A DNA stretch of 64,000 nucleotides, taken from an uncultured Gammaproteobacteria bacterium (GTDB taxonomy: Bacteria > Patescibacteriota > Microgenomatia > PFEM01 > JAPLYW01). Shown piece by piece: positions 3,677 through 33,835 of this stretch. The stretch is from positions 539,925 through 603,924 of the forward strand of contig OZ246397.1 in assembly GCA_965230945.1 (NCBI GenBank). The letters are read 5' to 3'. The position numbers and the translations under genes are program-made. Below the pieces are notes generated by a model. That model was not told where the DNA came from. It saw only the letters and a program-made list of their open reading frames with translations, and searched no databases. How positions within the stretch are numbered: position 1 is the first letter of the stretch; each line of letters begins with the position of its first letter.

Positions 3677-3729
3677 TAGTTTTAGTTAAACTTTGCCTGT
3701 GGGGGCATGGCTTTAAGCTAGGAGGAAGA

Positions 3730-3849
3730 ATGATTATTATTGGAACGATTATTTCAGGGATTTTTATTTGCACAGCAGTTTTGCTTATAGGTAACGGTAA
3801 GTTATCTAAAATAATATCTCATGGAAAATCGTATAGAAATAGGTGGTAA
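3730..3849 (+). CDS. candidate small membrane protein (39 aa, MIIIGTIISGIFICTAVLLIGNGKLSKIISHGKSYRNRW)
   Basis: Perfect SD AGGAGG at 3720-3725 with 4-nt spacing to the ATG; hydrophobic. Below the ORF-track size cutoff. Confidence 0.3.
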   Translation: MIIIGTIISGIFICTAVLLIGNGKLSKIISHGKSYRNRW

Positions 3850-3987
3850 GTTTGGTGGCGAGGATTCGTTCTAATTGCGGATTATTATCCTCCTATCAAA
3901 CTCAACCTAAATTTTCTTGCCCTTTTTTTTCAAGAAGGTCGCCTAACCAGCGGCTTTTTTGTTGGCTTTCTATGTTAGAATAAGGCG

Positions 3988-4788: not shown

Positions 4789-5219
4789 AAGCTTATTTAA
4801 TTTTATTACCAGTTTTTTTTCTAGCTCTTTTACAGGGGTCCTTTTTAGGCTTTAATTTGGTTCTTTTGCTGGTTTTGTTTTATGTAGTTTTAAAGCAGAA
4901 TAGACAGAGTTTATGGGTAGCTTTTTGGTCTGGCTTAATTTTGGATTTGGCCAAAGGTCATTACTTAGGGCTTTCTGCCTTGATCTTTTTGTTTTTTAGT
5001 TTCTTGTTGATTTTATATTTCCGTCGCTTTCAGGCAACTAATTGGCTTTTTTTGGTAATTTTTGTGGCTCTTTTTTCTGGTGCTTATTCTCTTTTGGTTT
5101 ATCGCTTTTTTGATTGGAAAGAAGTTTTGTTTTTAATTATTTTGGCTCTTTTAGTACGCTTCATCTTAAGATTTTTCTCTATAGAATTGGCAACTAAACA
5201 GATAAGATTAAGGAATTAA
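4785..5219 (+). CDS. mreD: Rod shape-determining protein MreD
   Basis: 144 aa polytopic membrane protein; start overlaps the mreC stop (ATGA); precedes PBP2. Confidence 0.7.
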   Translation: MKAYLILLPVFFLALLQGSFLGFNLVLLLVLFYVVLKQNRQSLWVAFWSGLILDLAKGHYLGLSALIFLFFSFLLILYFRRFQATNWLFLVIFVALFSGAYSLLVYRFFDWKEVLFLIILALLVRFILRFFSIELATKQIRLRN

Positions 5220-6854
5220 ATGGATAACAAAACACGAGTTTATATTTTCTTAGGCTTTTTAATTATTGGTTTCCTGCTTTTAACAGCTCGTTTATTTGAA
5301 CTGCAGATAGTTTTTGGTTCTAAAAACAGAGTTTTAGCTGAGGGTAACAGAATTAAAAAAGAGATTATTCCTGCTCCTCGAGGGATTATTTACGACCGTT
5401 ATGGTAGGGAGTTGGTAAGAAACATACCTCTTTACCGACTAAAGATTGAGAACGAACAGTGCAAGGATGAAGATAAAGATTGCTTTAGGATAATTTCCCG
5501 GGAAGAAGCCTTGAGTTTAGAAGCAAAAGGAGATGTAGATAATCTACAAATAAACATTGGTCGTAATTATTTATATAAAGAATCTTTAGCTCATGTTTTA
5601 GGTTACCTAGGAGAGGCAACTAAAGAGGAAGTAGAGTTAGGCAAATTTAAAATGGGAGATTTAGTGGGGCGAATGGGGGTAGAGGAAGAATATGATTATC
5701 TATTACGAGGCCAAGATGGAGGTGTAATTTACGAAGTTGATACTCATGGAAATAGAATTAGAGAAATTGGACGGGTTGAACCCGTACCAGGAAAAGATTT
5801 ACATCTTACCATTGATGCCGAGCTTTCTGCCAAAGCCTATGAAGCCTTGGGAGGCCAAACGGGAGCCATAGTTGTTTCTAGGGTAGATGGTAATGAGATT
5901 TTAGCTTTAGTCTCTTCGCCTGCCTTTAATCCTAACCTTTTAAGTAGGACAGATGGTGAAGGTGATAGGCTAACTAAAAAAGTTCAAGAATTATTTGATA
6001 ATCCTAATAAACCTTTTTTTAATCGGGCCATTAGCGGGGTTTATCCACCTGCTTCGACTTTTAAAATTGTAACCGCCGTTGCCGGTTTAGAAGAAGAAAA
6101 GATTGATAAAGATACCATTTGGAATGATACCGGTGAAATAAGAGTAGGCGAATATGTTTACCGGAACTGGTACTTCATTCAATACGGCAAGACAGAGGGG
6201 GAGATTAATTTAATAACAGCTATTAAACGATCCACAGATACTTTTTTTTACAAGGTAGGTGAGTGGGTGGGCCCAACTCGTTTATCTGAATGGGCAACAG
6301 CTTTTGGTTTAGGCCAAAAGACTGGCATTGCTCTTCCAGGAGAAACGAAGGGTTCTGTTCCCAGTCCAAAGGAAAAAGAAAGATTGAAAGGCGAACGATG
6401 GTTTTTAGGAAATACTTATCATTTTGCTATTGGCCAGGGAGATATCTTAACTACTCCTTTACAAATTAATACTATGACTAGTGTTATTGCCAATGATGGT
6501 GAATTATGTTCTCCCATGGTATGGAAAGAGGAAAAAAAGAACTGTCAGAACTTAAGACTTAAGCAAGAATCTTTAAAGTTAGTTAAAGAGGGAATGAAAG
6601 AGGCTTGCTCGCCAAAAGGAACAGCTTTTCCTTTCTTTGAATTTAAACCTCAAGTGGCTTGTAAAACGGGAACAGCTGAATTTGGTGATCCGCAAAACAA
6701 AACTCATGCTTGGTTGACTGCTTTTGCTCCCTTTTCAGAAGATGGCAAAGCAGAAATTGTGGCCACGGCTCTAGTAGAAAAGGGTGGTGAAGGTTCTTAT
6801 ATAGCTGCGCCTATAGTCAAAAAGGTAATGGAGTATTATTTCCATGAAAGATGA
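5220..6854 (+). CDS. mrdA: Penicillin-binding protein 2 (elongasome transpeptidase)
   Basis: N-terminal TM, PBP dimerisation domain, transpeptidase motifs STFK (ASTFKIV) and KTGTA. Confidence 0.85.
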   Translation: MDNKTRVYIFLGFLIIGFLLLTARLFELQIVFGSKNRVLAEGNRIKKEIIPAPRGIIYDRYGRELVRNIPLYRLKIENEQCKDEDKDCFRIISREEALSLEAKGDVDNLQINIGRNYLYKESLAHVLGYLGEATKEEVELGKFKMGDLVGRMGVEEEYDYLLRGQDGGVIYEVDTHGNRIREIGRVEPVPGKDLHLTIDAELSAKAYEALGGQTGAIVVSRVDGNEILALVSSPAFNPNLLSRTDGEGDRLTKKVQELFDNPNKPFFNRAISGVYPPASTFKIVTAVAGLEEEKIDKDTIWNDTGEIRVGEYVYRNWYFIQYGKTEGEINLITAIKRSTDTFFYKVGEWVGPTRLSEWATAFGLGQKTGIALPGETKGSVPSPKEKERLKGERWFLGNTYHFAIGQGDILTTPLQINTMTSVIANDGELCSPMVWKEEKKNCQNLRLKQESLKLVKEGMKEACSPKGTAFPFFEFKPQVACKTGTAEFGDPQNKTHAWLTAFAPFSEDGKAEIVATALVEKGGEGSYIAAPIVKKVMEYYFHER

Positions 6855-21650: not shown

Positions 21651-22133
21651 ATGAAGATTACCTTAGAACAAGTTAAAAAATTAAGAGCTAAAACCAGAGT
21701 TGGTATTATGGATTGCCGTCAAGCTTTAGAAGAATGTGGGGGTGATTTTATTAAGGCCGAGAAATGGCTTAAGGAAAAAGGTTTTAAAGCAAGTAAGAAA
21801 AGAGAAAGTAGAGAAACTTCTCAAGGTATGATTGAAGTTTACAGTCATAGTGATGGCAAGATTGTTGGTATGGTTGAGCTTTTATGTGAGACTGATTTTG
21901 TTTGCCGCAACAAAGAGTTTAAAAAACTGGCTCATGAATTGGCTATGCAGGTAGTTGCCATGAATCCTAAGGATAAAAAAGAACTCTTAAAACAGCCTTG
22001 GATTAGAGATGAATCGCAGACAATTGAAGAGCTGCTTAATAGTTTGATTGCCAAAACCGGAGAAAATGTTAAAATTGGGAGAATAGCTAGGTTTGAACTT
22101 GGGGAAGAACAAAAGAGGGAAAAAGCAAAATAA
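21651..22133 (+). CDS. tsf: Elongation factor Ts (short, 160 aa)
   Basis: N-terminal UBA-like LRAKTRVGIMDCRQALEE; lies between rpsB and frr. Confidence 0.8.
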   Translation: MKITLEQVKKLRAKTRVGIMDCRQALEECGGDFIKAEKWLKEKGFKASKKRESRETSQGMIEVYSHSDGKIVGMVELLCETDFVCRNKEFKKLAHELAMQVVAMNPKDKKELLKQPWIRDESQTIEELLNSLIAKTGENVKIGRIARFELGEEQKREKAK

Positions 22134-22138
22134 TCTTT

Positions 22139-22690
22139 ATGGAATTGACAGAAGTTGGCGATAAAATGGACAGAGTCATTGAGTTTTTTGTCGATGACCT
22201 GCGTTCCCTGCGGGCCGGTCGGGCCAGTCCCTCTTTGATTGAAAAGATTGTGGTTGAAGCTTATGATTCTAAGATGCCTCTAGTGGAATTGGCCACCATT
22301 GTTTCTTCAGATGCCAATCAGCTGACAATTACCCCCTTTGATCAAACAATTATTAGGAATATTGAAAGAGCTTTAAGTATGGATAGAAATTTAGGTTTGA
22401 TTGTTAGGCCTGAAGAGAGTGCTATTAGGGTTGAATTTCCGCCTTTAACAGAAGAAAGAAGGCAAGAATTTAGCAAGCTTTTAAGGCAAAAGGTTGAATC
22501 AGCCAGGGTTATGATCAGACAGATTCGTCATGAGAAGATTACCGAGATAAAAAAAGCTTTTGAAAACAAAGAGATTGACGAAAACAGCAAGTTTAATCAA
22601 GAAAAAGAACTGCAAAAATTGACCGATGAGTTTAATAAGAAAATTGAAGAAATTGGTCAGCAAAAAGAGAAAGAATTGCTTTCAATTTAG
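22139..22690 (+). CDS. frr: Ribosome recycling factor
   Basis: 183 aa RRF signature (DDLRSLRAGRASPSLIEKIVVEAY...). Confidence 0.85.
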   Translation: MELTEVGDKMDRVIEFFVDDLRSLRAGRASPSLIEKIVVEAYDSKMPLVELATIVSSDANQLTITPFDQTIIRNIERALSMDRNLGLIVRPEESAIRVEFPPLTEERRQEFSKLLRQKVESARVMIRQIRHEKITEIKKAFENKEIDENSKFNQEKELQKLTDEFNKKIEEIGQQKEKELLSI

Positions 22691-22718
22691 TCTACTTTTT
22701 ATTAGTTATTAATTTTGT

Positions 22719-23894
22719 ATGTGGTTAACCTTAATCACTTTTTTAATCGTTTTTTCCGTTATTATCTTAGTCCATGAGCTAGGTCATTTTTGGATAGCCA
22801 GAAAAGCCGGTATTAAGGTAGAGGAGTTTGGTTTTGGTTTTCCCCCTCGGCTTACGGGAAAAAAGATTGGTAAAACCTTTTTTTCCTTAAACTGGTTGCC
22901 TTTTGGAGGTTTTGTCAGGCTTTTTGGTGAGGAACTAGTCAAGGATTACAAAAAGAAAGGTAAGGATTACAAAGAGGCTTTTTGGTATAAATCCAAGCGG
23001 GCGAGAATAGCCGTTTTAGTGGCCGGTGTTTTAGCTAATTTTCTTTTGGCTATTGTTTGTTTTTCTATAGTTTATTCTATTTCCGGTATTCCCACTCAAA
23101 CTGATAGGGTAAATATAGTGGCTGTTTTACCTGATTCCCCAGCTGCAGAACTGGATTTAAAGGAAAATGATATTGTTTTGAGTGTTGATGAAGTGAAAGT
23201 TAATGACTTAAATCACTTTGTTGATTTAATTGATCAAAGAAAAGGTAAAGAAGTTAAGCTTTTGCTGGAAAGAAAAAAGGACAACCCTTGTTTAGAAGGA
23301 ATTTTAGATGATGAACAGAAATTTAGTTGTCAAGATAGCAACTTGCTTTTAGGAATAGAACCTCGAGAAAATCCGCCTGAGGGAGAGGGCTCTTTAGGGG
23401 TTCTTGTTTCTAATGTTGAAGTTAAAAAATATCCTCTGTGGCAGATGCCTTTTAGGGGAACAGTTGAAGGTTTTAAGGTAGCCTTTGCTTTGGTGGGCTT
23501 AATTGTTTCTGGTTTAGGCAAGATGTTGCTTAATTTAGTTGCCCACGGTCAGGTGCCTACAGAAGTGGCTGGACCAGTAGGCATTATGCAAATGACTGGC
23601 ATGGTAGCCAAGTCGGGGATAATAGCTGTCTTACAATTTACAGGTTTGATTTCTGTTAACTTGGCTATTATAAATGTCTTGCCTTTCCCGGCTTTAGATG
23701 GGGGAAGATTGGTTTTTATTCTTTATGAAGCGGTGACTAAAAAAAGACCTAAACCTTCTTTTGAATCATGGACTAATGCCCTTGGTATGGCCTTTTTAAT
23801 AGCCCTTTTGGTTTTGGTAACCATCAACGATATAAAAAGACTAATGGTGACCACTAATATTCTACAAAAGATAAGGGCGATTTTGCCGTTTTAG
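22719..23894 (+). CDS. rseP: Site-2 protease RseP (M50 family) with a PDZ domain
   Basis: HELGHF zinc motif in TM1, PDZ in the middle, LDGG near the C-terminus. Confidence 0.8.
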   Translation: MWLTLITFLIVFSVIILVHELGHFWIARKAGIKVEEFGFGFPPRLTGKKIGKTFFSLNWLPFGGFVRLFGEELVKDYKKKGKDYKEAFWYKSKRARIAVLVAGVLANFLLAIVCFSIVYSISGIPTQTDRVNIVAVLPDSPAAELDLKENDIVLSVDEVKVNDLNHFVDLIDQRKGKEVKLLLERKKDNPCLEGILDDEQKFSCQDSNLLLGIEPRENPPEGEGSLGVLVSNVEVKKYPLWQMPFRGTVEGFKVAFALVGLIVSGLGKMLLNLVAHGQVPTEVAGPVGIMQMTGMVAKSGIIAVLQFTGLISVNLAIINVLPFPALDGGRLVFILYEAVTKKRPKPSFESWTNALGMAFLIALLVLVTINDIKRLMVTTNILQKIRAILPF

Positions 23895-24025
23895 ATTTTC
23901 TGCTATACTGAATTAGTCTATGCTTTATTCAAAACTTTTTGGAAAAACAATAAAGGCAGCTCCTAAAAAAGCAGAAGCTATTTCCCATCAGTATCTTGTT
24001 AAAGCTGATTTTATAATTAATTTAC

Positions 24026-24883
24026 TTGAAGTTTAAATTTTTTATGAAAAGAATTGTTATTCATATTAATCCAGATTTGGATGCTGTTGCTTCAGTTTGG
24101 CTTATCAAAAGATTTTTGCCTCGTTGGGAAAAAGCAGAAATAGGTTTCTGTCAGGCAGAAACAACTTTTGATGGGAAGCCAGTAGATAGTGATCCTGATA
24201 TTTTACATCTTGATGTTGGTTTAGGTAAACTTGATCATCATCAAACTGATTGTTTTACTTCGGCAGTTAAACTCACTTTAGATTTCATCTTAGAAAAAAG
24301 AAAAGGACAAGAGTTGAGCCCTTTAGATTTAGAGGCTTTAGAGCTCATGGTAGAAACGATTAATGAAATTGATAATGCGCGAGATTTGAATTGGCCGGAA
24401 GTTAAAAAAGAGCGTTATGATTTTTATCTCCATTCTATTTTAAGTGGTTTAAGAAGAATGGGGAAAACTGATATTGAACTAGTTGAATACGGTTTTTTAG
24501 GGCTAAATGCTGTTTTTAAGAATCTTAAAGCAGGGATAAAAGCCAAAGAAGAAATAAAAAAGGGGATTGAATTTCAGACTCCTTGGGGAAAGGCAATTGC
24601 CTTGGAGACCGGTAATGAATTATTTTTATGGGAAAGTGAAAAAGCTGGTTATTATTTAGTGGTTAAAAAGGATCCTGACGATGGTGATGTTAGAATTTAT
24701 GCTCGTTATGATAGTGATGTTGATTTGAAAAATGTTTATCAAAAATTTAAAGAGATGGATAAAGAATCTGATTGGTTTTTACACGCTTCCGGTAAGTTGT
24801 TATTAAATGGATCTCGGGTTAAAAAGATGAAACCAACAAAGTTAAGTTTAGAGCAAGTAATTGGGGTGTTGAAAAATGGTTGA
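24026..24883 (+). CDS. DHH-family phosphoesterase (NrnA-like nanoRNase/pAp phosphatase)
   Basis: IHINPDLDAVAS (motif I) and GKLDHHQTD (DHH motif). The likely ATG is at 24044; the track start at 24026 is a TTG. Confidence 0.6.
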   Translation: MKFKFFMKRIVIHINPDLDAVASVWLIKRFLPRWEKAEIGFCQAETTFDGKPVDSDPDILHLDVGLGKLDHHQTDCFTSAVKLTLDFILEKRKGQELSPLDLEALELMVETINEIDNARDLNWPEVKKERYDFYLHSILSGLRRMGKTDIELVEYGFLGLNAVFKNLKAGIKAKEEIKKGIEFQTPWGKAIALETGNELFLWESEKAGYYLVVKKDPDDGDVRIYARYDSDVDLKNVYQKFKEMDKESDWFLHASGKLLLNGSRVKKMKPTKLSLEQVIGVLKNG

Positions 24884-25199
24884 TTGTATTTTTTGTCAAA
24901 TTGCTCAAAAAAAGATACCAGCAGAGATTGTTTATGAAGATAAAAAGATCATTGCTTTTAATGATGTTAACCCTAAAGCACCTGTCCATATCTTAATTAT
25001 TCCTAAGAAACATATTAAAGATTTTATTAGTTCTGGAAAATTCTTTCCTAAGATTTTAAAAGTTGCTAAAGACTTAATTAAAAAGTATAATTTAGATAGG
25101 AATGGTTATAGATTAGTAGTCAATGGCAGGAGTGCAGCGCTTGTCGATCATTTACATTTACATCTTTTAGGAAAAATAACTGTTGATAGGAATGTTTAG
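24876..25199 (+). CDS. HIT-family (histidine triad) nucleotide hydrolase
   Basis: 107 aa; CIFCQI N-terminus; HLHLHLLG histidine triad at the C-terminus. Confidence 0.8.
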   Translation: MVDCIFCQIAQKKIPAEIVYEDKKIIAFNDVNPKAPVHILIIPKKHIKDFISSGKFFPKILKVAKDLIKKYNLDRNGYRLVVNGRSAALVDHLHLHLLGKITVDRNV

Positions 25200-25236
25200 G
25201 GGAAGTTATTCTAATAGGGTAAATTATTTTTAAGTA

Positions 25237-25307
25237 CGGGGCGTAGCTCAAAATAGAGCAGCGTACTTGGTGTACGATGTATAGTGGTTTAAATCCATTC
25301 GCCCCGA
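25237..25307 (+). tRNA. tRNA-Pro(UGG)-like element with atypical D- and T-loops, 36 nt upstream of the proS start; either a divergent tRNA or a tRNA-mimic operator
   Basis: Hand-folded cloverleaf. Acceptor CGGGGCG/CGCCCCG is 7/7 Watson-Crick. U8 A9. D-stem GCTC/GAGC with a 6-nt D-loop AAAATA (no G18G19). Anticodon stem GCGTA/TACGA. Loop CUUGGUG (U33, anticodon UGG, U at position 37). T-stem AGTGG/CCATT with loop TTTAAAT (no C56). Discriminator A; no encoded CCA. Confidence 0.45.
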
Positions 25308-25343
25308 CAAATTTAAAGAGATTAAGAAATAATATGATTTTCT

Positions 25344-26792
25344 ATGAATGAAAAAGAGAAGGTTAATTTTTCTTCTAAAGAATTAGGAGTTAAGGTGGAA
25401 TCAGATAAAATTTCTGAGTGGTATAATAAAATAATTAAAGAGGCTGATTTGATTGATCAAGGCCCAGCTAAAGGGACGATGGTTTTTCGTCCTTATGGTT
25501 ATGCTCTTTGGAAAGGAGTTCAAAAGAGTCTTGGGTTTAAAATAGAAAAGAATGGGGTTGAAGATGCTTATTTTCCTGCTATAATTCCAGAAAAACTTCT
25601 AGTTAAAGAAAAAGATCATATTGAAGGTTTTTCTCCGGAATTTTTACGTGTTCGAGGTAGAAGTGGAGAAATTGGAGTATTGAGGCCAACTTCCGAAGCT
25701 GTAATGTATCCATTATTTAAGAAGTGGATTCAATCTTACAGAGATTTACCCCTTAAAGTAAACCAGTGGTGTAATGTTTTTAGAGATGAGTTAAGAACGT
25801 ATGCTTTAATACGCACTTCTGAATTTCTTTGGCAGGAGGGTCATTGCGTGTATGCTTCAGCAAAGGAAAACGAAGAAGCAGTGATGGATTTTTTAAATAT
25901 GTATAAGAATTTTTTTCGTAATACTCTTGCTGTATCTCCTATTTTTGGGAAAAAAAGCGAAAAGGAAAAATTTGCAGGAGCTTTATATACTACAACTGGC
26001 GAAGCAGTTTTACCAGGAGGGAAAGCTCTTCAAGTTTGTACTTCTCATAATTTAGGGACAAATTTTGCAGAAGCCTTTGATATACAATTTTTAGGTAAAG
26101 ATGGCAAACAACATCACCCATATCAGACAAGTTGGGGTTTAAGCTGGCGGGTTATTGCCGCGATGATTATGAGTCACGGTGATAAAAAAGGGCTTATTTT
26201 TCCACCAGAAATGGCCCCTACGCAAGTAATAATTATACCTATTAAAGGTTCATCTGATGAAGTAGTTATGGAAGCAGCAAAATCTATAAAAGAAAGATTG
26301 TCTGATTTGAGAGTTGATATAGATAAGTCAGATGCAAGGCCAGGAGCTCGTTATAATTATTATGAACTTAGAGGAGTACCTTTAAGGATTGAAATTGGCG
26401 CCCGTGATATTCATAATAATCAGATAATAGTTGCAAATCGATTAACTGGTGATAAAAAAGCTCTGCCTTTAGGTGGTCAGCTTAGAAAAGGCATACAGTT
26501 GTCATTAACATCAATACAAGAGTCTTTATTAAAGAAATCTGAAAGTTTAGTTAAAGAAAGTACCAAAGATGTAAAGACATGGGAAGAATTTAAAGAGATT
26601 CTTAATAAAAATGGAGGTTTTCTGAGAACTTATCACTGTGGAAATAGAGATTGTGAACAACAAATTCAGGATGAAACAAAAGCAACATTAAGATGTATCC
26701 CTTTCGGTTATGAAAAATCAGAGGGAAAATGTGTTAGATGCGGAAAACCATCTAATTATGGTCAAAAAGTACTTTTTGCTAAGGCCTATTAG
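25344..26792 (+). CDS. proS: Prolyl-tRNA synthetase, archaeal/eukaryal-type (class IIa) with a C-terminal zinc-binding domain
   Basis: Motif 1 region FRPYGYALW, motif 2 FRDELRTYALIRTSEF, motif 3 GLSWRVIAAMIMSHGDKKG, anticodon-binding domain, C-terminal CGNRDC...CVRCGK. Confidence 0.85.
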   Translation: MNEKEKVNFSSKELGVKVESDKISEWYNKIIKEADLIDQGPAKGTMVFRPYGYALWKGVQKSLGFKIEKNGVEDAYFPAIIPEKLLVKEKDHIEGFSPEFLRVRGRSGEIGVLRPTSEAVMYPLFKKWIQSYRDLPLKVNQWCNVFRDELRTYALIRTSEFLWQEGHCVYASAKENEEAVMDFLNMYKNFFRNTLAVSPIFGKKSEKEKFAGALYTTTGEAVLPGGKALQVCTSHNLGTNFAEAFDIQFLGKDGKQHHPYQTSWGLSWRVIAAMIMSHGDKKGLIFPPEMAPTQVIIIPIKGSSDEVVMEAAKSIKERLSDLRVDIDKSDARPGARYNYYELRGVPLRIEIGARDIHNNQIIVANRLTGDKKALPLGGQLRKGIQLSLTSIQESLLKKSESLVKESTKDVKTWEEFKEILNKNGGFLRTYHCGNRDCEQQIQDETKATLRCIPFGYEKSEGKCVRCGKPSNYGQKVLFAKAY

Positions 26793-26800
26793 TATTTTCT

Positions 26801-27571
26801 ATGTTTATGGAATGTAGTAGTAAATTAACATTGTCAAATATTCCTTCCGATTATCCACTTCCTAACCTTTATTATTTCTCTTCCAAATTTTTAACAGAAA
26901 TTCGTAAACAGGTGACAGGTGCTGTTTCAATTTTAAATCAAAATGGTTTTGAAGAATGTCATTTCCCTTTTTTAGTTCCGAGAAGCCTTTTATTGTATTA
27001 TAAGAACTTAATATCTTTGGAAGATTTTATAAAAGTATATTCAGGGAAAGATAAGCGATCATATGCTTATTTGAGACCAGATGGTGTGTTTAGTCAAGGG
27101 ATCACTTTAGCAAAAGAAATGATTAAGAGTTATCGTAATTTACCCTTGAAATTATTCGAAGTATCCCCAAGCTATAAAAGATTAAAGAACAAAACCAAAG
27201 GGAATGTCTTTACTTCTCCAGAAGAGTCTTTTTCTATACAAGGTGGAGTATTTATTGAGGATAAAGACGAAAATGAATTTCTTCAGACGATTATTTCTAG
27301 AATTCTAAATAACTTCTCAATACCGTATATAGCCAAAAATAATAAATTATGTAAATATGGGGGAATAAATTATAGCACTCTTTTTAGTGACAATGAGATA
27401 AATCTCGCTAAAATTTGTGTTTTTGATCAAGAAGTTACTCGGGAAGCAAACATTTATTTTTTTAATAAAGAGGGAAGGAGATCTTTTCCATACATGTATA
27501 GCTTTAGCTTATCTCAAAACATTTTTTTAATTAGTCTTTTAAAAAATGAAAGAATAGGATTAGAAAAGTGA
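26801..27571 (+). CDS. ProRS-like paralog truncated to the N-terminal catalytic region (256 aa); no anticodon-binding or Zn domain
   Basis: YAYLRPDGVFSQGITLAKEMIKSYRNLPLKLFEVSPSYK parallels the proS segment [37 protein letters not shown]; very AT-rich. Confidence 0.55.
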   Translation: MFMECSSKLTLSNIPSDYPLPNLYYFSSKFLTEIRKQVTGAVSILNQNGFEECHFPFLVPRSLLLYYKNLISLEDFIKVYSGKDKRSYAYLRPDGVFSQGITLAKEMIKSYRNLPLKLFEVSPSYKRLKNKTKGNVFTSPEESFSIQGGVFIEDKDENEFLQTIISRILNNFSIPYIAKNNKLCKYGGINYSTLFSDNEINLAKICVFDQEVTREANIYFFNKEGRRSFPYMYSFSLSQNIFLISLLKNERIGLEK

Positions 27572-28995
27572 ATAACATATCAGAAGAGAAATTGATAGAT
27601 TGGCTGAAGTTTTATGTTAACTTTGGTGATATAGTAAATGATGATTTTCCTACTAAAGGAGCTTGTTCTTGGTACCCTTATGGATATTCTTTAATGAAGA
27701 ATATCCTTCATTTAGCATCAAATATTTTAATTAAGAAAGCTAAGTTTAAAGAGATTGTTTTACCATCTTTTGTTCATGGTGAAGATTTCATGAAAGAATG
27801 CAAAAATATAAAAGATTTTAGTGAACGTGTATATTGGTCGCCATTATATAGAAAAGACGATCTACATGTAGTAACTCCTACAATTGAAGCACAGTTAGGT
27901 GCTCTTTATAATAAATGGCTACAAGCAAATAAAAAACTTCCGTTTAAGTATTTTACGATAAGGGGAGTAGGTCGTTATGAAACTGGAAGGACAATTCCTT
28001 TATGGAAGGAACGTAACGTTTGGCCTTTTTTTGAAGGGTTAACGGTTCATAGTTCTTCATCTGATTTTTTAGCTACCATAAAACAACAAATAAATTTTAT
28101 GGAAGTTTTTTTTGAAGAACTTGGAATTCCTGTTTTAATCCTTGAAAGACCTAAGATTAATTCTCGTTTGTGTGAATATTCTGAGCGAAGAATAGAAGCT
28201 GTTACGATAACTAAAGATAAGAGGGTTGTAATACTAGCAAATATATATGATTTAGGAGAAATATTTAGTAGAGTATACGATATCTTTTATATCGTTAAGA
28301 ATACTAAATATTATGCCTTAACTTCTGCGATAGGTTTATCTGGTAGGGTGTTGGCTACCTTGTTGACTATAAATGGCGATAAAGATGGTTTTATTCTTTC
28401 TCCAATGATTGCTCCAATTAAGTTAGCGATATTACCAATTTATAATAAACCAGCTTTTACTAAGCTAGCAAAAAAGATAGAAGTTTATTTAAGTAAAAAA
28501 GGTATAGTTTCAAAGAATTTTCCGGCTGTGTCTTCGTTGGGAGAGAGGAGAAGAAAAGTAACAGCAATGGGGATACCTTTTTTAATAGAGATTGGATCAA
28601 ATGAAATAAAAAGCTCGTCAGTATTAATAAAAGAACGTGTTCTTACTCATAATTCTACAGAATGTGAAATAAAAGAAATACCTTATATTATTAAGAAACG
28701 AGGCAAAATAATGAATAAGTTTATTAAGCAGAAAGCATTTAAAGAATTCAATTTACTTACTAAGTCTGTTAAGTTAAAGAAAAATTTTCTTTATTGCCTT
28801 AAAGATGAGATTTTAACAGAATCATTTTTTTGTAATAATCCAAATTGTTATAATAAAATGGCAGAATTGTCAAATAGAGAAATAATTGGTCGTAATTATA
28901 AAGCTAAAATAAATAAAAAATCTAAATGTATAGTTTGTGGAAAAACAGCATCTCAAGGTATTTATTTTGGTATTAAATGGAAGGGAGAAAAGTGA
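27568..28995 (+). CDS. Full-length divergent ProRS-family paralog (475 aa: catalytic, anticodon-binding and Zn-ribbon domains)
   Basis: PTKGACSWYPYGYSLMK, VTPTIEAQLGALYNKWLQANKKLPFKYFTIRGVGRYETGR (motif 2 altered), GLSGRVLATLLTINGDKDG (motif 3), SPMIAPIKLAILPI, C-terminal CNNPNC...CIVCGK. Confidence 0.6.
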   Translation: MNNISEEKLIDWLKFYVNFGDIVNDDFPTKGACSWYPYGYSLMKNILHLASNILIKKAKFKEIVLPSFVHGEDFMKECKNIKDFSERVYWSPLYRKDDLHVVTPTIEAQLGALYNKWLQANKKLPFKYFTIRGVGRYETGRTIPLWKERNVWPFFEGLTVHSSSSDFLATIKQQINFMEVFFEELGIPVLILERPKINSRLCEYSERRIEAVTITKDKRVVILANIYDLGEIFSRVYDIFYIVKNTKYYALTSAIGLSGRVLATLLTINGDKDGFILSPMIAPIKLAILPIYNKPAFTKLAKKIEVYLSKKGIVSKNFPAVSSLGERRRKVTAMGIPFLIEIGSNEIKSSSVLIKERVLTHNSTECEIKEIPYIIKKRGKIMNKFIKQKAFKEFNLLTKSVKLKKNFLYCLKDEILTESFFCNNPNCYNKMAELSNREIIGRNYKAKINKKSKCIVCGKTASQGIYFGIKWKGEK

Positions 28996-28997
28996 TT

Positions 28998-29912
28998 ATG
29001 GATTTTTTAAAAAAGGGAGACACTATTGGGGTGGTTGCTCCTGGCTCGCCAGTGCCTAAAAAAAATATAAAAAAGGGAGTTAATGTTCTTAGTAATATGG
29101 GCTTTAATGTAAAATTAGGTAAGCATATTTTTAGTATTACTGGCTATACGGCAGGAATTGCAAAAGATCGTGCTAATGATATTAATAGGTTTTTTTCTGA
29201 TTCTCAGATTAAAGCGATAATTGCTGCTCGTGGTGGTTATAATTGCAATCAGATCTTACCATTTTTAGATTATGGACTTATTAAAAAAAACCCAAAGATT
29301 TTCTTAGGTCTTAGTGATGTAACTGCAGTGTTAAATGCTATTGTTTTGAAATCGAATGTTATAACATTTCATGGCCCAGTTCTTTTAATGATAGGGGGTG
29401 GAAGAGATGGTAAAGTATTCTCTAAGTATTCCAAAGAAAATTTTGAAAAAATACTTATGAATGAAAAGAAAAGGTTTATTAATGTAGTTAATGCCTTTGA
29501 TAATTGGATTGTTTTAAATAAAGGAAAAGCTGTAGGCAAACTTTTTGGCGGGAACCTCTCTTCTTTAATAAGTATTATTGGTACATCATATGAACCAAAT
29601 TGGAAAAATGCGATTCTAATGTGGGAAACGCTGGAAGAAAAATTAGAAATGATAGATCAGATGTTAACACATCTGAGATTAGCTGGAATTTTTGATAAAA
29701 TTAATGGTATGATGGTAGGTAAGTTTGTTGATACTAAACAGGGAAGAGATACAGAGATTATTAAAATGATTTTAGAACAATGCAGGGGATATGATTTTCC
29801 GATAATTTATGGGGTTGATTTTGGCCATACTAACGAAAATTTAATATTACCTATAGGTGGGGAAATTAGTTTTAATACAGAAGAAGAATTTCTTAAGATT
29901 ATTAAATATTAA
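28998..29912 (+). CDS. Peptidase S66 family (LD-carboxypeptidase LdcA / microcin-C immunity MccF-like serine hydrolase)
   Basis: IGVVAPGSPV, nucleophile motif LGLSDVTAV, C-terminal GVDFGHT...PIGGE His motif. An alternative ATG at 28977 overlaps the upstream stop. Confidence 0.7.
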   Translation: MDFLKKGDTIGVVAPGSPVPKKNIKKGVNVLSNMGFNVKLGKHIFSITGYTAGIAKDRANDINRFFSDSQIKAIIAARGGYNCNQILPFLDYGLIKKNPKIFLGLSDVTAVLNAIVLKSNVITFHGPVLLMIGGGRDGKVFSKYSKENFEKILMNEKKRFINVVNAFDNWIVLNKGKAVGKLFGGNLSSLISIIGTSYEPNWKNAILMWETLEEKLEMIDQMLTHLRLAGIFDKINGMMVGKFVDTKQGRDTEIIKMILEQCRGYDFPIIYGVDFGHTNENLILPIGGEISFNTEEEFLKIIKY

Positions 29913-29923
29913 ATTAGAAATTT

Positions 29924-31057
29924 ATGGGGCCTTATCAGGCGAAGCCAGGCGGTGTTATTTCTTATTTAGGCAATAAGATTTATCCTCCAGTTGAGGATGT
30001 ATTAGCTGTTTCTTGGCCACCAAAAGATTTAGTAGACAGAGTTGGATCTATTTATCGAGATAAGAAGTGGTACCACCTGCATAAAATTGATGCCTCAATT
30101 TTTACTGCTACGACACAATTCTTCCAAAGTATAAATGCTGATTGGGTTAATCTACCTCTTACCACTATGATGATTTCTTCTCCTGGTGAAGTTTATGCTG
30201 GACAAAGACTAAATTACACAACAGATACTTTACCTATGGAAATTCCTAATTGGTTTCATACTGGTAATAGAGTGTTTCTTTCAGAATCTTCACAGTTTTA
30301 TCTAGAATTAAGATTAATAATTGATAAGCTGGATAAAGTTTTTTCGATTTATAATTCTTTTAGGAAGGAAAAAGCTGATGCTACTCATTTATCAGAATTC
30401 CAACATGTTGAGTTTGAAGGACATGTTAATTTCAAAAATAACATAAATACTTTTATCAATTTGATTAATTATATTTTAAATTTTCTTTTACAAAATAACG
30501 AAGATAATTTATCTTTTTTTCTTGAAGATCAAGATATAAATGAATTATCTCGAAGCATGAAAAAGATTTTTAAGGTTCCGTTTGTCGAAATTTTAAAAGT
30601 TCTTTTTAAGGAAACTGGAAATAATAAATATAAAGAATTTTCAATGAAGAATTTTGGGTCGTGGGAAGAAATTTTTATTACTCAGATTTACGGCGGTAAT
30701 GTGTTAGCTCTTAATTTCCCTATGTTGCAGATCCCTTTTTATCATGAAATAAGTAAGAAAAAAGTTGGGGGTGTTCCTGTAGCTGAAAATGCAGATTTAA
30801 TACTTCAAGGATATAGAGAAACTGTTGGGAGTGGATTAAGAATTACAGATCCAAAGGCTTTGGCAGAAAAAGCAAAAATTTTTAATCTACCTATAGATGA
30901 CTATAAACCTTACCTTGAGACACGTAAGATGAAGAAATATAAAACATCGGCTGGTTTCGGTTTAGGTTGGCAAAGATTTACGCAATGGATTTTAAAATTA
31001 CCATATATTTGGGAAACAACCCCAACTCCTCGTGGACACACAAAACCAAGGCTTTAA
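29924..31057 (+). CDS. Standalone class IIb aaRS catalytic core (AsnA / AsnRS-AspRS-like); no anticodon-binding domain
   Basis: Motif 2 FSIYNSFRKEKADATHLSEFQHVEFE, motif 3 SAGFGLGWQRF, C-terminal IWETTPTPR (compare AsnRS IRDVIPFPR). Confidence 0.6.
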   Translation: MGPYQAKPGGVISYLGNKIYPPVEDVLAVSWPPKDLVDRVGSIYRDKKWYHLHKIDASIFTATTQFFQSINADWVNLPLTTMMISSPGEVYAGQRLNYTTDTLPMEIPNWFHTGNRVFLSESSQFYLELRLIIDKLDKVFSIYNSFRKEKADATHLSEFQHVEFEGHVNFKNNINTFINLINYILNFLLQNNEDNLSFFLEDQDINELSRSMKKIFKVPFVEILKVLFKETGNNKYKEFSMKNFGSWEEIFITQIYGGNVLALNFPMLQIPFYHEISKKKVGGVPVAENADLILQGYRETVGSGLRITDPKALAEKAKIFNLPIDDYKPYLETRKMKKYKTSAGFGLGWQRFTQWILKLPYIWETTPTPRGHTKPRL

Positions 31058-31107
31058 TTAAAAACAACATTTTTTATTACTTGATAATTTACAGAATATA
31101 ATCGATA

Positions 31108-31263
31108 ATAAAAAAAGAGCTTTTAGGGAAAATAGTTTTAAAAATTAAAGAAATTGCTAAAGAGAAAAAAATAGATAAAGGCTACAAGGTGCAAATTAAC
31201 TGCGGAAGAAAGGCGGGTCAAATAGTACCTCATTTGCATTTTCATTTGCTCGCTGGTTTTTAA
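31108..31263 (+). pseudogene. 3' fragment of a second HIT-family gene (about 51 codons, no start codon)
   Basis: In-frame translation IKKELLGKIVLKIKEIAKEKKIDKGYKVQINCGRKAGQIVPHLHFHLLAGF followed by a stop. The HIT C-terminal block and histidine triad are present, the N-terminal nucleotide-binding half is absent, and a stop lies immediately upstream at 31105-31107. Confidence 0.55.
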
Positions 31264-31320
31264 AGCTCCTAAAAGAAATCTTTAGTATTTGCCATAAAGA
31301 AAGGAAGGTGATATGAGAAA

Positions 31321-31509
31321 ATGGCGACTGTTGTCAAAAAGTCTCCGGGAGAGACTGAAGATAGGCTGATTGCTAAGTTTAGAAGGAAAATTATTTCTGA
31401 ACAGCTTCTAGATGAAATTAGAGAAAGAAAATTTTACAAACCGCCATCAGTTAAAAAGAAAGAACGTTTGGCGGCTTTAAGACGGGGGAGGGGAAGGAAA
31501 AGGAGATAA
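31321..31509 (+). CDS. rpsU: 30S ribosomal protein S21
   Basis: 62 aa; LIAKFRRK...FYKPPSVKKKERLAA, basic tail. Confidence 0.8.
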   Translation: MATVVKKSPGETEDRLIAKFRRKIISEQLLDEIRERKFYKPPSVKKKERLAALRRGRGRKRR

Positions 31510-31949
31510 TGCTTCTAGAAAAAATTAAAACAGATTCTGATAAGGCCTTAAAGAAAAAGGACAATATTAAGGTATCTACCTTGCGTATCTTACTTTCTGA
31601 AATTCATAACAAACAAATCGGTAAACAAACCGATAGGTTATCTGATGAGGAAATTGTTAAAGTAATTCGTCAACAAGCTAAACAAAGGCAAGAAGCAATA
31701 ACGGCTTACAAGCAAGGAAAACGTGATGATTTAGTTCAGAAAGAGAGCAAAGAATTAGATGTTTTGAGTAAATATCTTCCACAGGAAATGCCAGCAGAGG
31801 AGATTGAGAAGATAGTTAAACAAATAATTGAGGACTTAGGGGTTAGTGGCCCTGAAGGGTTTGGCAAGGTCATGAGTGAGGCTATGAAGCGTATTTCTGG
31901 TCAAGCAGAAGGGTCAAAAGTGGCCGAAATTGTTAAGAAATTGATATAG
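31509..31949 (+). CDS. GatB/YqeY domain protein
   Basis: 146 aa; typical rpsU-yqeY pairing; YqeY-like helical sequence. Confidence 0.7.
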   Translation: MLLEKIKTDSDKALKKKDNIKVSTLRILLSEIHNKQIGKQTDRLSDEEIVKVIRQQAKQRQEAITAYKQGKRDDLVQKESKELDVLSKYLPQEMPAEEIEKIVKQIIEDLGVSGPEGFGKVMSEAMKRISGQAEGSKVAEIVKKLI

Positions 31950-31983
31950 TTTATTATAATTAAGTTCTAGTTGACAGCTTCAG

Positions 31984-32343
31984 ATGAATTCCATTTTAAT
32001 TAAATCAGCAGGGAAATTTAATCTTAGTAAGGACTTGGTAGAAAAATGGGCTTTGGAAGTACTTAAAAAATACGGTTTAAGTGATTGTGAATTGAGCATC
32101 GCTTTTGTTGATAGTAAAAAGATTAGATCTTTAAATAAAAATTATCGTCAGCTTGATAAAGCGACAAGTATTTTATCTTTTTTTCAAGGGCAGGCAGCCC
32201 CTGAAAATATCAAAATCTTGGGCGATGTTGTCATTTGTCCGCCCGAGGCAGAAAAGAAAAATCTTTCAATTAAATTTTTAATTGACCATGGAATCCGTAA
32301 CCTACTATCTGAAATATCGACCAGCAAAAGTCAAGGAACTTGA
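31984..32343 (+). CDS. ybeY: YbeY-like endoribonuclease with a degenerate C-terminus
   Basis: LSIAFVDSKKIRSLNKNYR...SILSF...GDVVICPPEA matches the YbeY core. Where HGxLHLLGYDH is expected the sequence reads HGIRNLLSEIS, and the ORF overlaps the dnaX start by about 60 nt. Confidence 0.5.
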   Translation: MNSILIKSAGKFNLSKDLVEKWALEVLKKYGLSDCELSIAFVDSKKIRSLNKNYRQLDKATSILSFFQGQAAPENIKILGDVVICPPEAEKKNLSIKFLIDHGIRNLLSEISTSKSQGT

Positions 32344-33835
32344 CTTAGTTGATGTTCGTGATAGCTTAACTAAAGTTTTAAGCTCAGGTAAAATTCCCCA
32401 TGCTTTTTTATTTTCAGGGCCCAAGGGTACCGGCAAAACTTCTGCCGCCAGAATTTTAGCCAAAGCAGTTAATTGTTTAAGGAATTACAAAAAAGGCAGG
32501 AAAAGCGATTTTGAACCTTGTAATAAGTGTGAGATTTGTCAGGAAATAAATAGCGGCCGAGCCCTTGATCTGATCGAAATTGATGCCGCTTCCAATAGGG
32601 GTATTGATGATATTCGCGACCTAAGAGAAAAGATAAAGCTAGCACCGGCAAAGTGCCGTTATAAAATCTATATTATTGATGAGGTGCACATGTTAACTAC
32701 AGAAGCTTTTAATGCTTTGTTAAAAACTCTAGAAGAGCCGCCAAAACACGCTTTATTTACCCTTTGTACTACCGTTCCTGAGAAATTACCCAAGACGATT
32801 GTTTCTCGCTGTACTCAGATTAAATTCAAGAAAGCTAGTTTAGAGGAGATGATAAGATCTTTGAAAAGGGCGACTGAGGGAGAAAAGCTTTCTTTGGGTA
32901 AAGGGGTTTTAGAGGAGATTGCTAAAAATGCTGATGGTAGTTTTAGAGATGCGCAAAAGATTTTAGATCAACTCTCTTTAAGCGGAAAGAGAATTTCTTT
33001 AAAAGAGACAAAGAAACTTTTAGGGAGAATTGAAGAATTAAAAGCAGATGGGTTATTATTGTCTTTAGCTGATAAAGAAGTTAAAAAAGCTCTTTTGGAG
33101 ATTGATAAGGTGGTTAGTTTTGGGGCAGATTTAAGTTTTTACTTGCAGGATGTTTTAGAAAAACTTCGTTTTCTTTTATTAGAAAAGACAGGTATTTCTG
33201 ATTTAGATAATCAAGATTTAGATCAAGAGCTGAAAGGGGCTTTTGCAAAGTTGACTAAAGGCGATCTTTTTAGATTGATTACCTTATTTGCTCAAGCTGC
33301 TATTGAGATTAAAGTAAGTCCCATTCCTCAATTACCCCTAGAATTGGCTGTGGTTCAATGGTGTGAGGTAGAAGAAGAAAACAAAGTTCATGCACAAAAA
33401 GCAAATCCTTCTGGTAAAAAGGTTAGTAATAATCCTTCACCTAATGGGGAGATGAAAAAAGCAAGTGGGAATAATGATGATGGTTTAAGTAGGATTGTAG
33501 ATCAGTGGGATGATTTATTGACTGGAGTTGGGCCCTTAAATCATTCGGTAGAGGCCTTACTTAGAGCAACAAGGCCCGTTAAAATGGAAGGCCAGTTTTT
33601 GACTTTAGAGGTTTTTTATAAATTTCATAAAGAGAGGTTAGAAACGGAAAAGTGTCGTTCTATTGTGGAAGAAGTGGCCAGTCAACTTTTAGATACACCG
33701 GTAAAATTAAAGTGTATCTTAGGCGAGAAGAAAAATACTCAAAGCATGAGTAAGCCCATTGATGATACTAAAGGTGATAAAAATGATATAATGGATATTG
33801 CCAGTCAGATATTTAATGGCAAATTAATTGATTAA
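32282..33835 (+). CDS. dnaX: DNA polymerase III subunit gamma/tau
   Basis: YRPAKVKELDLVDVRD, Walker A GPKGTGKTS, zinc module CNKCEICQ, Walker B IYIIDEVH, sensor TTVPEKLPKTIVSRC. Confidence 0.85.
   Translation: MTMESVTYYLKYRPAKVKELDLVDVRDSLTKVLSSGKIPHAFLFSGPKGTGKTSAARILAKAVNCLRNYKKGRKSDFEPCNKCEICQEINSGRALDLIEIDAASNRGIDDIRDLREKIKLAPAKCRYKIYIIDEVHMLTTEAFNALLKTLEEPPKHALFTLCTTVPEKLPKTIVSRCTQIKFKKASLEEMIRSLKRATEGEKLSLGKGVLEEIAKNADGSFRDAQKILDQLSLSGKRISLKETKKLLGRIEELKADGLLLSLADKEVKKALLEIDKVVSFGADLSFYLQDVLEKLRFLLLEKTGISDLDNQDLDQELKGAFAKLTKGDLFRLITLFAQAAIEIKVSPIPQLPLELAVVQWCEVEEENKVHAQKANPSGKKVSNNPSPNGEMKKASGNNDDGLSRIVDQWDDLLTGVGPLNHSVEALLRATRPVKMEGQFLTLEVFYKFHKERLETEKCRSIVEEVASQLLDTPVKLKCILGEKKNTQSMSKPIDDTKGDKNDIMDIASQIFNGKLID

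Follow-up and report, generated by a model that had tools for sequence, protein, structure and literature searches.

A foreign block that probably split a HIT gene and displaced the native prolyl-tRNA synthetase in a bacterium of the candidate phyla radiation

Displacement of the 3' end of a gene by incoming DNA has been described in several bacterial systems. For example, in Rhs, CdiA and type VI secretion system (T6SS) effector-immunity loci, homology-facilitated illegitimate recombination (HFIR, as defined in PMC3240628) has been proposed for the displacement of C-terminal regions and for the 'orphan' 3' modules found there (PMC5361080, citing Jackson et al. 2009). The locus considered here lies in a stretch of 64,000 nucleotides (positions 539,925 to 603,924 of contig OZ246397.1, assembly GCA_965230945.1; the window hereafter), deposited as an uncultured Gammaproteobacteria bacterium and placed by GTDB in the Microgenomatia of the Patescibacteriota, that is, in the candidate phyla radiation (CPR). 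In this stretch, a gene coding for a histidine triad (HIT) protein is separated by a block of ~6.06 kb from a second, start-less HIT sequence located in front of rpsU. The best explanation for this arrangement, to which we give a probability of about 0.85, is that a foreign block split the HIT gene, left a hybrid gene upstream and the native 3' remnant downstream, and replaced the native prolyl-tRNA synthetase (ProRS).

As in the Rhs, CdiA and T6SS loci, the 5' part of the target gene has been kept and a new 3' part, together with cargo, has been joined to it at a conserved sequence, while the former 3' part lies start-less downstream; the composite would then have been exchanged by homologous recombination. 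Unlike those loci, the target here is a small housekeeping hydrolase of the HinT type and not a polymorphic toxin, the cargo consists of a tRNA, aminoacyl-tRNA synthetase (aaRS) genes and an S66 peptidase and not of an immunity gene, orphans do not occur one after another in an array, the host belongs to the CPR, and the mechanism is a reconstruction. The resemblance would therefore be one of mechanism only. Another example is provided by phage 21 and e14 in the icd gene of Escherichia coli, where the incoming element brings a 3' end of its own for the gene, and the one present before is left as a pseudo-fragment. The likeness consists in a target gene that stays intact, an original 3' end that lies at the far junction, and no loss of target sequence. 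Unlike the icd case, no integrase, att-type repeat or phage genes were found at this locus, and the two 3' halves, imported and displaced, have a protein identity of only ~30%; in icd, by contrast, the segment brought by the element closely resembles the resident one.

The second known phenomenon to which the locus belongs is the xenologous replacement of aaRS genes. Horizontal transfer of these genes is widespread (PMC5388404), and Bacillus thuringiensis has both ProRS types, P-type and E-type (terminology as in PMC11229370). Here too an E-type enzyme has been gained by a lineage whose relatives use the P-type, and one related contig (L034) carries both, as B. thuringiensis does. Unlike the known cases, both scars of the replacement are visible (a P-type stub and a split insertion site), and the incoming ProRS is accompanied by a tRNA-Pro(UGG) of its own and by two paralogs. 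The kind of event is known, namely 3'-end displacement by anchored recombination combined with xenologous aaRS replacement; this example of it is new and unusually legible.

The two parts of the HIT gene

Homologs of YqeY place the organism among the CPR bacteria of the Microgenomates group and led to contigs related to the window; the 53-aa downstream HIT frame, when used as query in a word-indexed protein database search, gave no match, being too short. Three relatives are free of the cassette (L006/L007, L008/L009 and L010, with YqeY proteins 66, 63, and 58% identical to that of the window, respectively) and have the order rpsB-tsf-frr-M50 protease-ProRS-(279-aa gene)-HIT-rpsU-yqeY-ybeY-dnaX-ybaB-recR. 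Each of L006, L008 and L010 contains a single HIT gene of 112-113 aa, whose stop codon lies ~40 nt before rpsU; the uninterrupted HIT-rpsU arrangement that the earlier note on this DNA had proposed to look for in relatives is thus present in all three, and rpsU also directly follows the sole HIT gene in L041. In L006 and L008, a P-type ProRS is located between the M50 gene and the 279-aa gene, and the start of HIT overlaps the end of the 279-aa gene, an overlap also seen in the window and in L023. The flanks of the window are similar to those of L006 (84% identity for the 279-aa protein, 69% for the M50 protease and 92% for ribosomal protein S21), and two differences set the window apart from these relatives: the gap between the M50 and 279-aa genes is without a ProRS, and 6 kb of extra genes stand between HIT and rpsU. 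The features that define the locus are the following.

Positions 24026 to 24883, forward strand: conserved 279/285-aa gene, the left anchor, overlapping the HIT start by 8 nt; 84% identical in protein to L006 and 80% to L023.
Positions 24876 to 25019, forward strand: 5' part of the resident HIT gene, codons 1-48 (MVDC...HILIIPKKHI); identity to L006/L008 of 77/75% in protein and 78/84% in nucleotides.
Positions 25020 to 25199, forward strand: imported HIT 3' half of the '107-aa type' (...GYRLVVNG..HLHLHLLGKITVDRNV), in frame with the resident part, to which it is joined at the homologous position.
Positions 31080 to 31263, forward strand: displaced 3' part of the resident HIT gene, codons ~47-113; identity to the C-terminal half of L006/L008 of 84/76% in protein and 84/79% in nucleotides.
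Positions 31321 to 31509, forward strand: rpsU (ribosomal protein S21; Pfam Ribosomal_S21), the right anchor of HIT-rpsU-yqeY-ybeY-dnaX; 92% identical in protein to L006.

No Pfam family is matched above threshold by the 279/285-aa gene itself (weakly ChrB_C, E 1e-4); its product has DLDAV...DHH-like motifs, and in every relative the gene keeps its synteny with HIT.

The upstream gene is a 107-aa open reading frame (24876 to 25199) with a clear match to the Pfam HIT family (PF01230, E 3e-18, 66.6 bits against a cutoff of 21.5), and it is a chimera. Codons 1-48 are as similar to L006 and L008 as the neighboring genes are, and from codon 49 onward the identity to these orthologs drops to 29-31% in protein and ~50% in nucleotides, with indels. 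The orthologous HIT genes of L006 and L010 are evenly diverged (54% in the N-terminal and 49% in the C-terminal half). A maximum chi-square analysis places the breakpoint after 25019 in the comparison with L006 (chi2 60; differences of 18% to the left and 52% to the right) and after 25024 in that with L008, and the alignment column of the breakpoint is the same in the window, L023 and L028. The description of the upstream HIT as intact in the earlier note therefore holds for the reading frame, which is complete, but not for the gene as a whole, which is a hybrid whose first 48 codons are the missing resident 5' half.

The imported half is 63-69% identical to its counterparts in L023, L028 and P0087, and its dN/dS (the ratio of nonsynonymous to synonymous substitution rates, omega below) in the comparison with L023 is 0.27. 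P0087, a protein of 108 aa recovered in an exhaustive HMMER search, is 63-64% identical to the imported half and ~60% to the N-terminal half, and is thus evenly diverged; the same search delineated a loose family of HIT proteins of 106-117 aa that end in ...NGG.A...HLH.HLLG....(D/E)R.V. In L041 (963 nt), the only contig with P0087, this HIT gene is located directly upstream of rpsU and yqeY with no intervening cassette, which indicates that the imported half derives from a HIT lineage occupying the ordinary HIT-rpsU position in another genome of Microgenomates type and not from a cassette-specific enzyme. Directly past the switch, the window carries the donor-type motif HI(K/E)(D/E)F, also seen in P0087, P0089 and P0091, so that the crossover would lie immediately past the conserved PKKHI box, where the nucleotide sequence of the N-terminal half of HIT is conserved best. 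As read from these alignments, a join between two HIT genes at equivalent points would be a signature of homologous or homeologous recombination, unlike a random insertion, and the product is presumably a full-length and active enzyme of the HinT type. At most ~3 nt (codon 47, ATT) could be common to both junctions. A resemblance of ~10 nt between the junctions (TTAAAGATTT and TTGATAATTT) was considered as a target duplication and rejected, its left copy matching the donor-type motif.

The downstream frame is open from 31102 to a stop codon at 31261-31263 with a TAA in the same frame just before it (31099-31101); the first ATG, GTG or TTG is a GTG at 31189, so that the frame has no usable start. 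Its 53 codons match positions 43-95 of the 98 of the Pfam HIT model (E 1.7e-10, 41.8 bits), and they are 88% identical to the HIT protein of L006 over 49 residues (tblastn E 1.4e-16). Homology at the DNA level begins earlier, at ~31080 (cttgataatttacag... in the window against attgaaaaattacag... in L006), which corresponds to codon 47/48, the same codon at which the upstream gene ceases to be resident-like. The first ~25 nt of this homology fall outside the open frame because of a 1-nt insertion near 31107-31112 (AATAAAAAAAGAG against AAT-GATAAAGAA). The HIT domain encoded by 31102-31263 is incomplete, codons 1-47 being missing at the site and the N-terminal nucleotide-binding half with them, and the whole of 31080-31263 is best read as a gene remnant. 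On this evidence no part of the resident HIT gene has been lost: a single cut separates two pieces that now stand 6.06 kb apart.

The earlier note had recognized two HIT sequences at these places as homologous but not identical, and had suggested that the fragment may be the disrupted resident copy. Both points are borne out: the two share 13 of 24 residues in the catalytic core and 29% over their common C-terminal half, and the fragment matches, at 84-86% identity, the C-terminal half of the single HIT gene that relatives carry upstream of rpsU. Its proposal of an old rather than a fresh duplication fails, nothing having been duplicated: the C-terminal halves come from two distinct HIT lineages, and relatives have one HIT gene.

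The block that separates the two parts (25020-31079) is of foreign origin. Its GC content is 0.312 against a median of 0.360, with only one of 116 windows of 6 kb being lower, and the GC content at third codon positions (GC3) is 0.19-0.23 in the block against 0.28-0.36 in most flanking genes. The compositional distinctness pointed out in the earlier note is therefore real, and its suggestion of an insertion into a HIT locus by recombination involving HIT agrees with the single uninterrupted gene of relatives, the halves of which are found here on either side of the block. In addition, the stretch from 22000 to 33000, junctions included, is 100% identical in three independent assemblies (SRR3095939, SRR3095933 and JGI 3300008517), so that the split-HIT structure is not an assembly artefact.

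The fate of the native ProRS can be followed from two features.

Positions 23920 to 24036, forward strand: 5' stub of a P-type ProRS, 38 codons (MLYSKLFGKTIKAAPKKAEAISHQYLVKADFIINLLEV and stop), in the gap between the M50 protease and 279-aa genes.
Positions 25344 to 26792, forward strand: archaeal/eukaryote-type (E-type) ProRS (TIGR00408 proS_fam_I, 526 bits against a cutoff of 437).

The stub is 77% identical to the N-terminus of the L006 ProRS over 35 aa (tblastn E 1.7e-11), with 25 of its first 29 residues identical, and a full P-type ProRS stands at exactly this position in L006 and L008. The E-type enzyme of the block has all three Pfam domains (catalytic core, anticodon-binding domain and ProRS-C_1); its identity is 23% with the P-type ProRS of L006, against 70-82% with the module enzymes of L023, L025 and L026. 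The surviving P-type stub together with the imported E-type gene indicates that the native ProRS was displaced by the imported one. In L034, the P-type ProRS and the module are found side by side, a state that is a plausible intermediate before loss of the native gene. In that contig, the bacterial-type ProRS (413 aa) occupies 291-1532 and the E-type ProRS 3972-5429, with a 352-aa reading frame and an aminotransferase-looking one between them. In L023, the sister species, the same M50/279-aa gap holds at 739-1305 a P-loop-like reading frame of 188 aa (MKLIIIFGPQAVGKMT...), so that this gap has been remodelled in another way there. The replacement of an essential translation gene is thus recorded with both scars readable, the split target and the stub of the native ProRS. 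This is of biological significance because, to our knowledge, almost nothing is known about the exchange of genomic DNA in the CPR.

Mechanism, spread and alternative explanations

The event may be reconstructed as follows. The ancestor, a CPR bacterium of the Microgenomates group, would have had the order rpsB-tsf-frr-M50 protease-ProRS (bacterial type)-279-aa gene-HIT-rpsU-yqeY-ybeY-dnaX. A foreign block of ~6.06 kb would have entered HIT directly past the ...HILIIPKKHI box (codon 47/48), and the foreign HIT 3' half at its leading edge would have joined in frame at the homologous position, giving a full-length chimeric enzyme of the HinT type. The native 3' half would have been pushed 6 kb downstream with no loss of resident sequence, to become a start-less, frameshifted remnant before rpsU, and the native bacterial-type ProRS, now redundant, would have been deleted down to its stub of 38 codons. 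The left junction is attributed to a homologous or homeologous crossover of two HIT genes in the conserved box. The right junction, where the stop codon of the AsnRS-like gene (31055-31057) is followed after ~22 nt by resident codon 47/48, would be an illegitimate join, produced either by HFIR or by break repair templated by the foreign DNA. If so, a short conserved coding box such as HILIIPKKHI of HIT can anchor the import of 6 kb of foreign genes without destruction of the host gene.

The same left breakpoint column and the same right junction are found in two other species, represented by L023/L027 and L028. In L023, the first ~39 nt and the last ~27 nt of the remnant have been kept and ~145 bp between them deleted; in L028, the remnant is almost erased. 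Whether the L028 remnant comes from a HIT gene of the L010 or of the L006 type was also considered, and it proved too eroded for a firm assignment. The HIT protein of L028 is closest to L010 in its N-terminal half (77%) and to the window in its C-terminal half (69%). Compared with L006 and L008, several derived changes, the 1-nt insertion among them, are common to the window and L023 within the initial ~30 nt of the remnant, which implies that the junction arose once. The flanks of L023 are closest to those of the cassette-free L008 (S21 100% and YqeY 88% identical), the window being 62-66% identical to either. From 31111 onward, the remnant of the window has an omega of 0.118 (bootstrap confidence interval 0.03-0.35), against 0.086 for the functional pair L006-L008, and the substitutions specific to it fall on codon positions 1, 2 and 3 in the proportion 3/2/10. 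Judged by its substitution pattern, it would resemble a gene under protein-level selection until recently, yet between the window and L023 the cassette genes show a synonymous divergence of ~0.8. Flanks that do not track the cassette and a remnant that looks young argue against simple vertical descent, and this suggests that the cassette spread between related lineages by homologous recombination.

In that case, the composite allele would have formed once and moved later between lineages by ordinary homologous recombination through its flanks, with crossovers in or before the HIT box on the left, and in the remnant or rpsU on the right. In the lineage of the window, the right crossover would have fallen just 3' of the remnant start and left behind the lineage's own HIT 3' half, functional until then. 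Such a spread would explain why the remnant of the window still resembles a recently functional gene, and an 'insertion allele' moving between related lineages is suggested. The start of the remnant, in turn, may have been kept since it carries an rpsU promoter, for which there is a candidate.

Positions 31081 to 31109, forward strand: promoter-like TTGATA-17 nt-GATAAT where the remnant begins (10 of 12 positions agree with the consensus in a scan; speculative).

Hexamers with the same spacing can be read from the alignments in L006 and L008 (TTGAAA...GATAAT) and in L023 (TTGATA...GATAAT), where this stretch has been kept despite the deletion of the rest of the remnant. Speculatively, the motif may be the rpsU promoter that was once inside the resident HIT gene; it might explain both the tolerated insertion at this point and the retention in L023.

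Several points weigh against this reconstruction. The 'young remnant' rests on 50 codons, and its low omega could mean that it is still under some selection. The promoter is a consensus match, in an AT-rich region where such matches are not enriched (27 found against 30 expected). The contigs compared include no donor locus in which a complete '107-type' HIT directly precedes tRNA-Pro and ProRS; L041 is only 963 nt long, nothing is seen upstream in it, and its HIT type precedes rpsU, not the module. Pure homologous recombination would leave unexplained why the right, illegitimate junction lies at the exact codon of the left crossover. Among the called genes ~10 kb to either side there is no integrase or recombinase Pfam family, and no direct repeat of at least 14 nt with the spacing of the insert, nor any clear target duplication, was found. 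Finally, the view covers 64 kb of the genome, and a second ProRS or HIT gene could lie elsewhere.

The alternative that survives best, which we hold possible but tentative, is an ancient insertion that took place once, in an ancestor common to the window, L023 and L028, and was inherited vertically, with L006 and L008 having regained an intact HIT gene by recombination with uninterrupted alleles and the remnant still being selected, for example as promoter or leader of rpsU. The junctions and derived remnant characters common to the three species would fit such a history, as would the conserved promoter-like motif and the synonymous divergence (dS) of the cassette genes between the window and L023 (~0.8), which is similar to that of the flanks. 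However, the bias toward third positions and an omega of ~0.12 point to selection on a protein and not on a promoter or leader; the remnant is dispensable, as its fate in L023 and L028 indicates; and the proteins of rpsU-yqeY in L023 are nearly identical to those of the cassette-free L008.

Alternatively, a site-specific, gene-restoring integrative element might target HIT as phage 21 and e14 target icd, its integrase having been lost later or acting in trans. This is unlikely. The anatomy is exactly that of such an element (chimeric intact gene, displaced start-less 3' remnant, no target loss), the block begins beside a tRNA gene, and the same junction occurs in three species whose flanks are not mutual closest relatives. 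Against this stand the missing integrase and direct repeat already mentioned, the occurrence of the five-gene module elsewhere with no HIT 3' end at its border (L025 and L026), and the derived mutations common to the window and L023 at the right junction, which indicate one event and not repeated insertion.

An old tandem duplication of HIT, followed by divergence, insertion of the cassette between the copies and 5' truncation of the downstream one, would account for two HIT-homologous sequences in the same orientation 6 kb apart, but it is very improbable. Relatives have one HIT gene; the upstream gene is 77% identical to its orthologs in codons 1-48 and ~30% thereafter, an abrupt switch at which the downstream piece exactly begins; the dead copy is the conserved one and the functional C-terminal half the divergent one, which is the opposite of the prediction; and that divergent half has a closer full-length relative elsewhere (P0087). 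An artefact (a miscalled start, as the earlier note had feared, a sequencing frameshift or a chimeric assembly) can practically be dismissed: the fragment is a clean open frame of 53 codons with a 1-nt indel at its 5' end and does belong to a longer gene in relatives, but the 3' end of the AsnRS-like gene fills the space upstream of it in the window and the ~22 nt left leave no room for the missing 47 codons, three independent assemblies are identical, and two other species have the same architecture in a further decayed state.

Genes of the block and their occurrence elsewhere

Relative to the HIT sequences that bracket it, the cassette itself (tRNA-Pro, ProRS, two paralogs, MccF-like peptidase and AsnRS-like core) is probably the more novel object, and it recurs across Patescibacteria. 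Besides the E-type ProRS, the block contains the following genes.

Positions 25237 to 25307, forward strand: tRNA-Pro(UGG), with which the imported module begins (Rfam tRNA, 46.2 bits, E 1.2e-7).
Positions 26801 to 27571, forward strand: 256-aa divergent protein with a ProRS core only (TIGR00408 E 1e-5; Pfam tRNA-synt_2b E 2e-4).
Positions 27568 to 28995, forward strand: 475-aa divergent ProRS paralog with core, anticodon-binding and C-terminal zinc domains (TIGR00408 208 bits, below cutoff).
Positions 28977 to 29912, forward strand: S66 peptidase, probably of the MccF-like branch (Pfam Peptidase_S66 and S66C).
Positions 29924 to 31057, forward strand: 377-aa protein with an asparaginyl-tRNA synthetase (AsnRS)-like catalytic core only, the last gene of the block (Pfam tRNA-synt_2 E 4e-25).

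The tRNA-Pro(UGG) gene of the window surfaced from an alignment of intergenic sequences and was then supported by Rfam; ARAGORN had missed it, but reports a tRNA-Pro(tgg) at the corresponding site of L023, L025, L026, L028, L032 and L034. The copies are located at 25237-25307 (forward strand) in the window, 2505-2576 in L023, 7697-7768 in L025, 1962-2033 in L026, 443-514 in L028 and 3881-3953 in L034. The anticodon arm is odd in all of them, with a G-A mismatch at the first pair of the anticodon stem, a loop reading C(U/C)UGGUG, and U at position 37, where G37 is usual for tRNA-Pro; position 33 is C in L025, and the version in L036 has an AGG anticodon. For annotation, the 107-aa HIT should be recorded as a hybrid protein, 31080-31263 and 23920-24036 as pseudogene remnants, and the so far unannotated tRNA-Pro at 25237-25307 should be added.

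The 256-aa protein adjoins the ProRS-like gene in nearly all module loci with upstream sequence, L039 being the exception, and in the window the two genes overlap by 4 nt. The 475-aa paralog belongs to a family (P0057-P0084) that comes nearly entirely from metagenome assemblies, the few other members being from uncultured CPR-type metagenome-assembled genomes. Its four C-terminal cysteines are invariant (alignment A5), and by reading of the sequence it seems to keep class-II motif-2/3-like arginines (GRYE and GLSGR). The pair suggests an active enzyme of two subunits. Among solved structures, the S66 peptidase comes nearest to Lmo1638, BA_5613 and E. coli MccF (E 1e-39 to 1e-42), ahead of LdcA (1e-20 to 1e-27). 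The AsnRS-like protein is without an anticodon-binding domain and scores below the cutoffs for both asnS and asparagine synthetase A.

Homologs of the ProRS paralog (35-79% identity) are found almost only in CPR-type metagenome contigs, and their contexts are of four types.

Type 1 (window, L023/L027 and L028): 279-aa gene, chimeric 107-aa HIT, tRNA-Pro, ProRS, 256-aa protein, ProRS-like protein, S66 peptidase, AsnRS-like protein, HIT remnant, rpsU.
Type 2 (L032-L034): tRNA-Pro, ProRS, 255-aa protein, ProRS-like protein, 133-aa HIT of another subfamily, yqeY.
Type 3 (L036): on one strand an E-type ProRS between a 5' HIT remnant (MECLFCQIIEKKIPSEIIYE... up to a stop) and a 135-aa HIT; on the other strand tRNA-Pro(AGG), 239-aa protein and ProRS-like protein.
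Type 4 (L025, L026 and L030): module (tRNA-Pro, ProRS, p250 and ProRS-like protein, the S66 and AsnRS-like genes being present or not) in unrelated contexts without an upstream HIT-like sequence.

A tblastn search for HIT remnants beside the module in L025 and L026 found none. In L036, the 5' HIT remnant (4429-4527), the ProRS (2939-4381) and the complete 135-aa HIT of another subfamily (2496-2903) are all on the reverse strand, an independent case of a broken HIT beside an E-type ProRS. Taken over the four types, HIT genes seem to be recurrent neighbors and breakpoints of ProRS-module rearrangements and not a fixed component.

The last two genes of the block have a distribution of their own. 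Homologs of the AsnRS-like protein (49-57% identity) occur in 11 diverse Patescibacteria, always with an S66 gene no more than 5 kb away. The pair is found in Saccharibacteria, Paceibacteria, Gracilibacteria, Peribacteria and Vampirococcus (L012-L022; for example, L013 8812-13024 and L017 2509-6431). In at least two of them, L013 and L017, a gene resembling S-adenosylmethionine (SAM)-dependent methyltransferases is located between the two, and a conserved protein of ~375 aa is encoded nearby. The AsnRS-like gene of L014 directly follows one for an E-type ProRS.

HinT-type and MccH-type hydrolases

The earlier note had also suggested that the upstream HIT may belong functionally to the cassette as MccH-like immunity. 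Members of the MccH clade have the motif ExxxxxHxHxKxx, in which the third His of the triad is replaced by Lys, have lost the N-terminal His (Phe instead) and carry a C-terminal extension of ~45 aa, and HinT proteins gave no protection against microcin C (PMC7157772). In the chimeric HIT of the window, the triad H92-L-H94-L-H96-L-L is intact (HxHxHxx with hydrophobic x), so that H96 is retained, and the residue six positions before the first triad His is S86 and not Glu. The N-terminal H38, counterpart of H39 of E. coli HinT, is present in ...KAPVHILIIPKKH, and the protein ends 11 residues past the triad. Its best solved relatives are HIT, HINT1 and hinT proteins (E 1e-24 to 1e-14), and NCBIfam HinT models match it with E 1e-18 to 1e-19, below their equivalog cutoffs. 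With all three sequence features of MccH absent, the upstream HIT is to be classed as a HinT-type and not an MccH-like enzyme. Nor does it appear to be a functional member of the cassette, since the same cassette occurs without HIT in L025 and L026 and the imported type is an ordinary HIT in L041.

As in the MccH/MccF clusters (PMC7157772), a HIT hydrolase and an S66 peptidase, here a probably MccF-like one, are found in one block with enzymes that make aminoacyl-adenylates. Unlike those clusters, the HIT protein here is without MccH signatures and is missing from the same module elsewhere. Searches of the cassette reading frames with Pfam and NCBIfam returned aaRS-type and S66 domains only, with no MccB-like adenylyltransferase or exporter; no search was aimed at a short reading frame for a precursor peptide. 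Given the apparent affinity of the S66 protein to MccF, a role of the block in the handling of aminoacyl-adenylate-like compounds is possible, and it would not rest on the HIT protein. A further reading, which is doubtful but would connect these elements, takes the HIT sequences as homology arms of a portable 'proline-decoding' cassette (the tRNA-Pro(UGG) with its odd anticodon loop, the E-type ProRS, the pair of ProRS paralogs, and the MccF-like peptidase with the AsnRS-like core) that enters hit-rpsU through homologous recombination as it spreads among the CPR and drives the loss of P-type ProRS, by means of resistance to, or production of, an inhibitor mimicking prolyl- or aspartyl-adenylate. 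If so, detoxification of adenylate analogues would be a task of the HinT half that was imported as well as of the MccF-like peptidase.

Finally, another aaRS-like gene is present in the genome of the window ~10 kb upstream of HIT (L003, 1-150). It codes for a 640-aa protein that matches the Pfam families GlutR_N, Shikimate_DH and tRNA-synt_2, an unusual combination of glutamyl-tRNA-reductase-like and class II aaRS-like parts.

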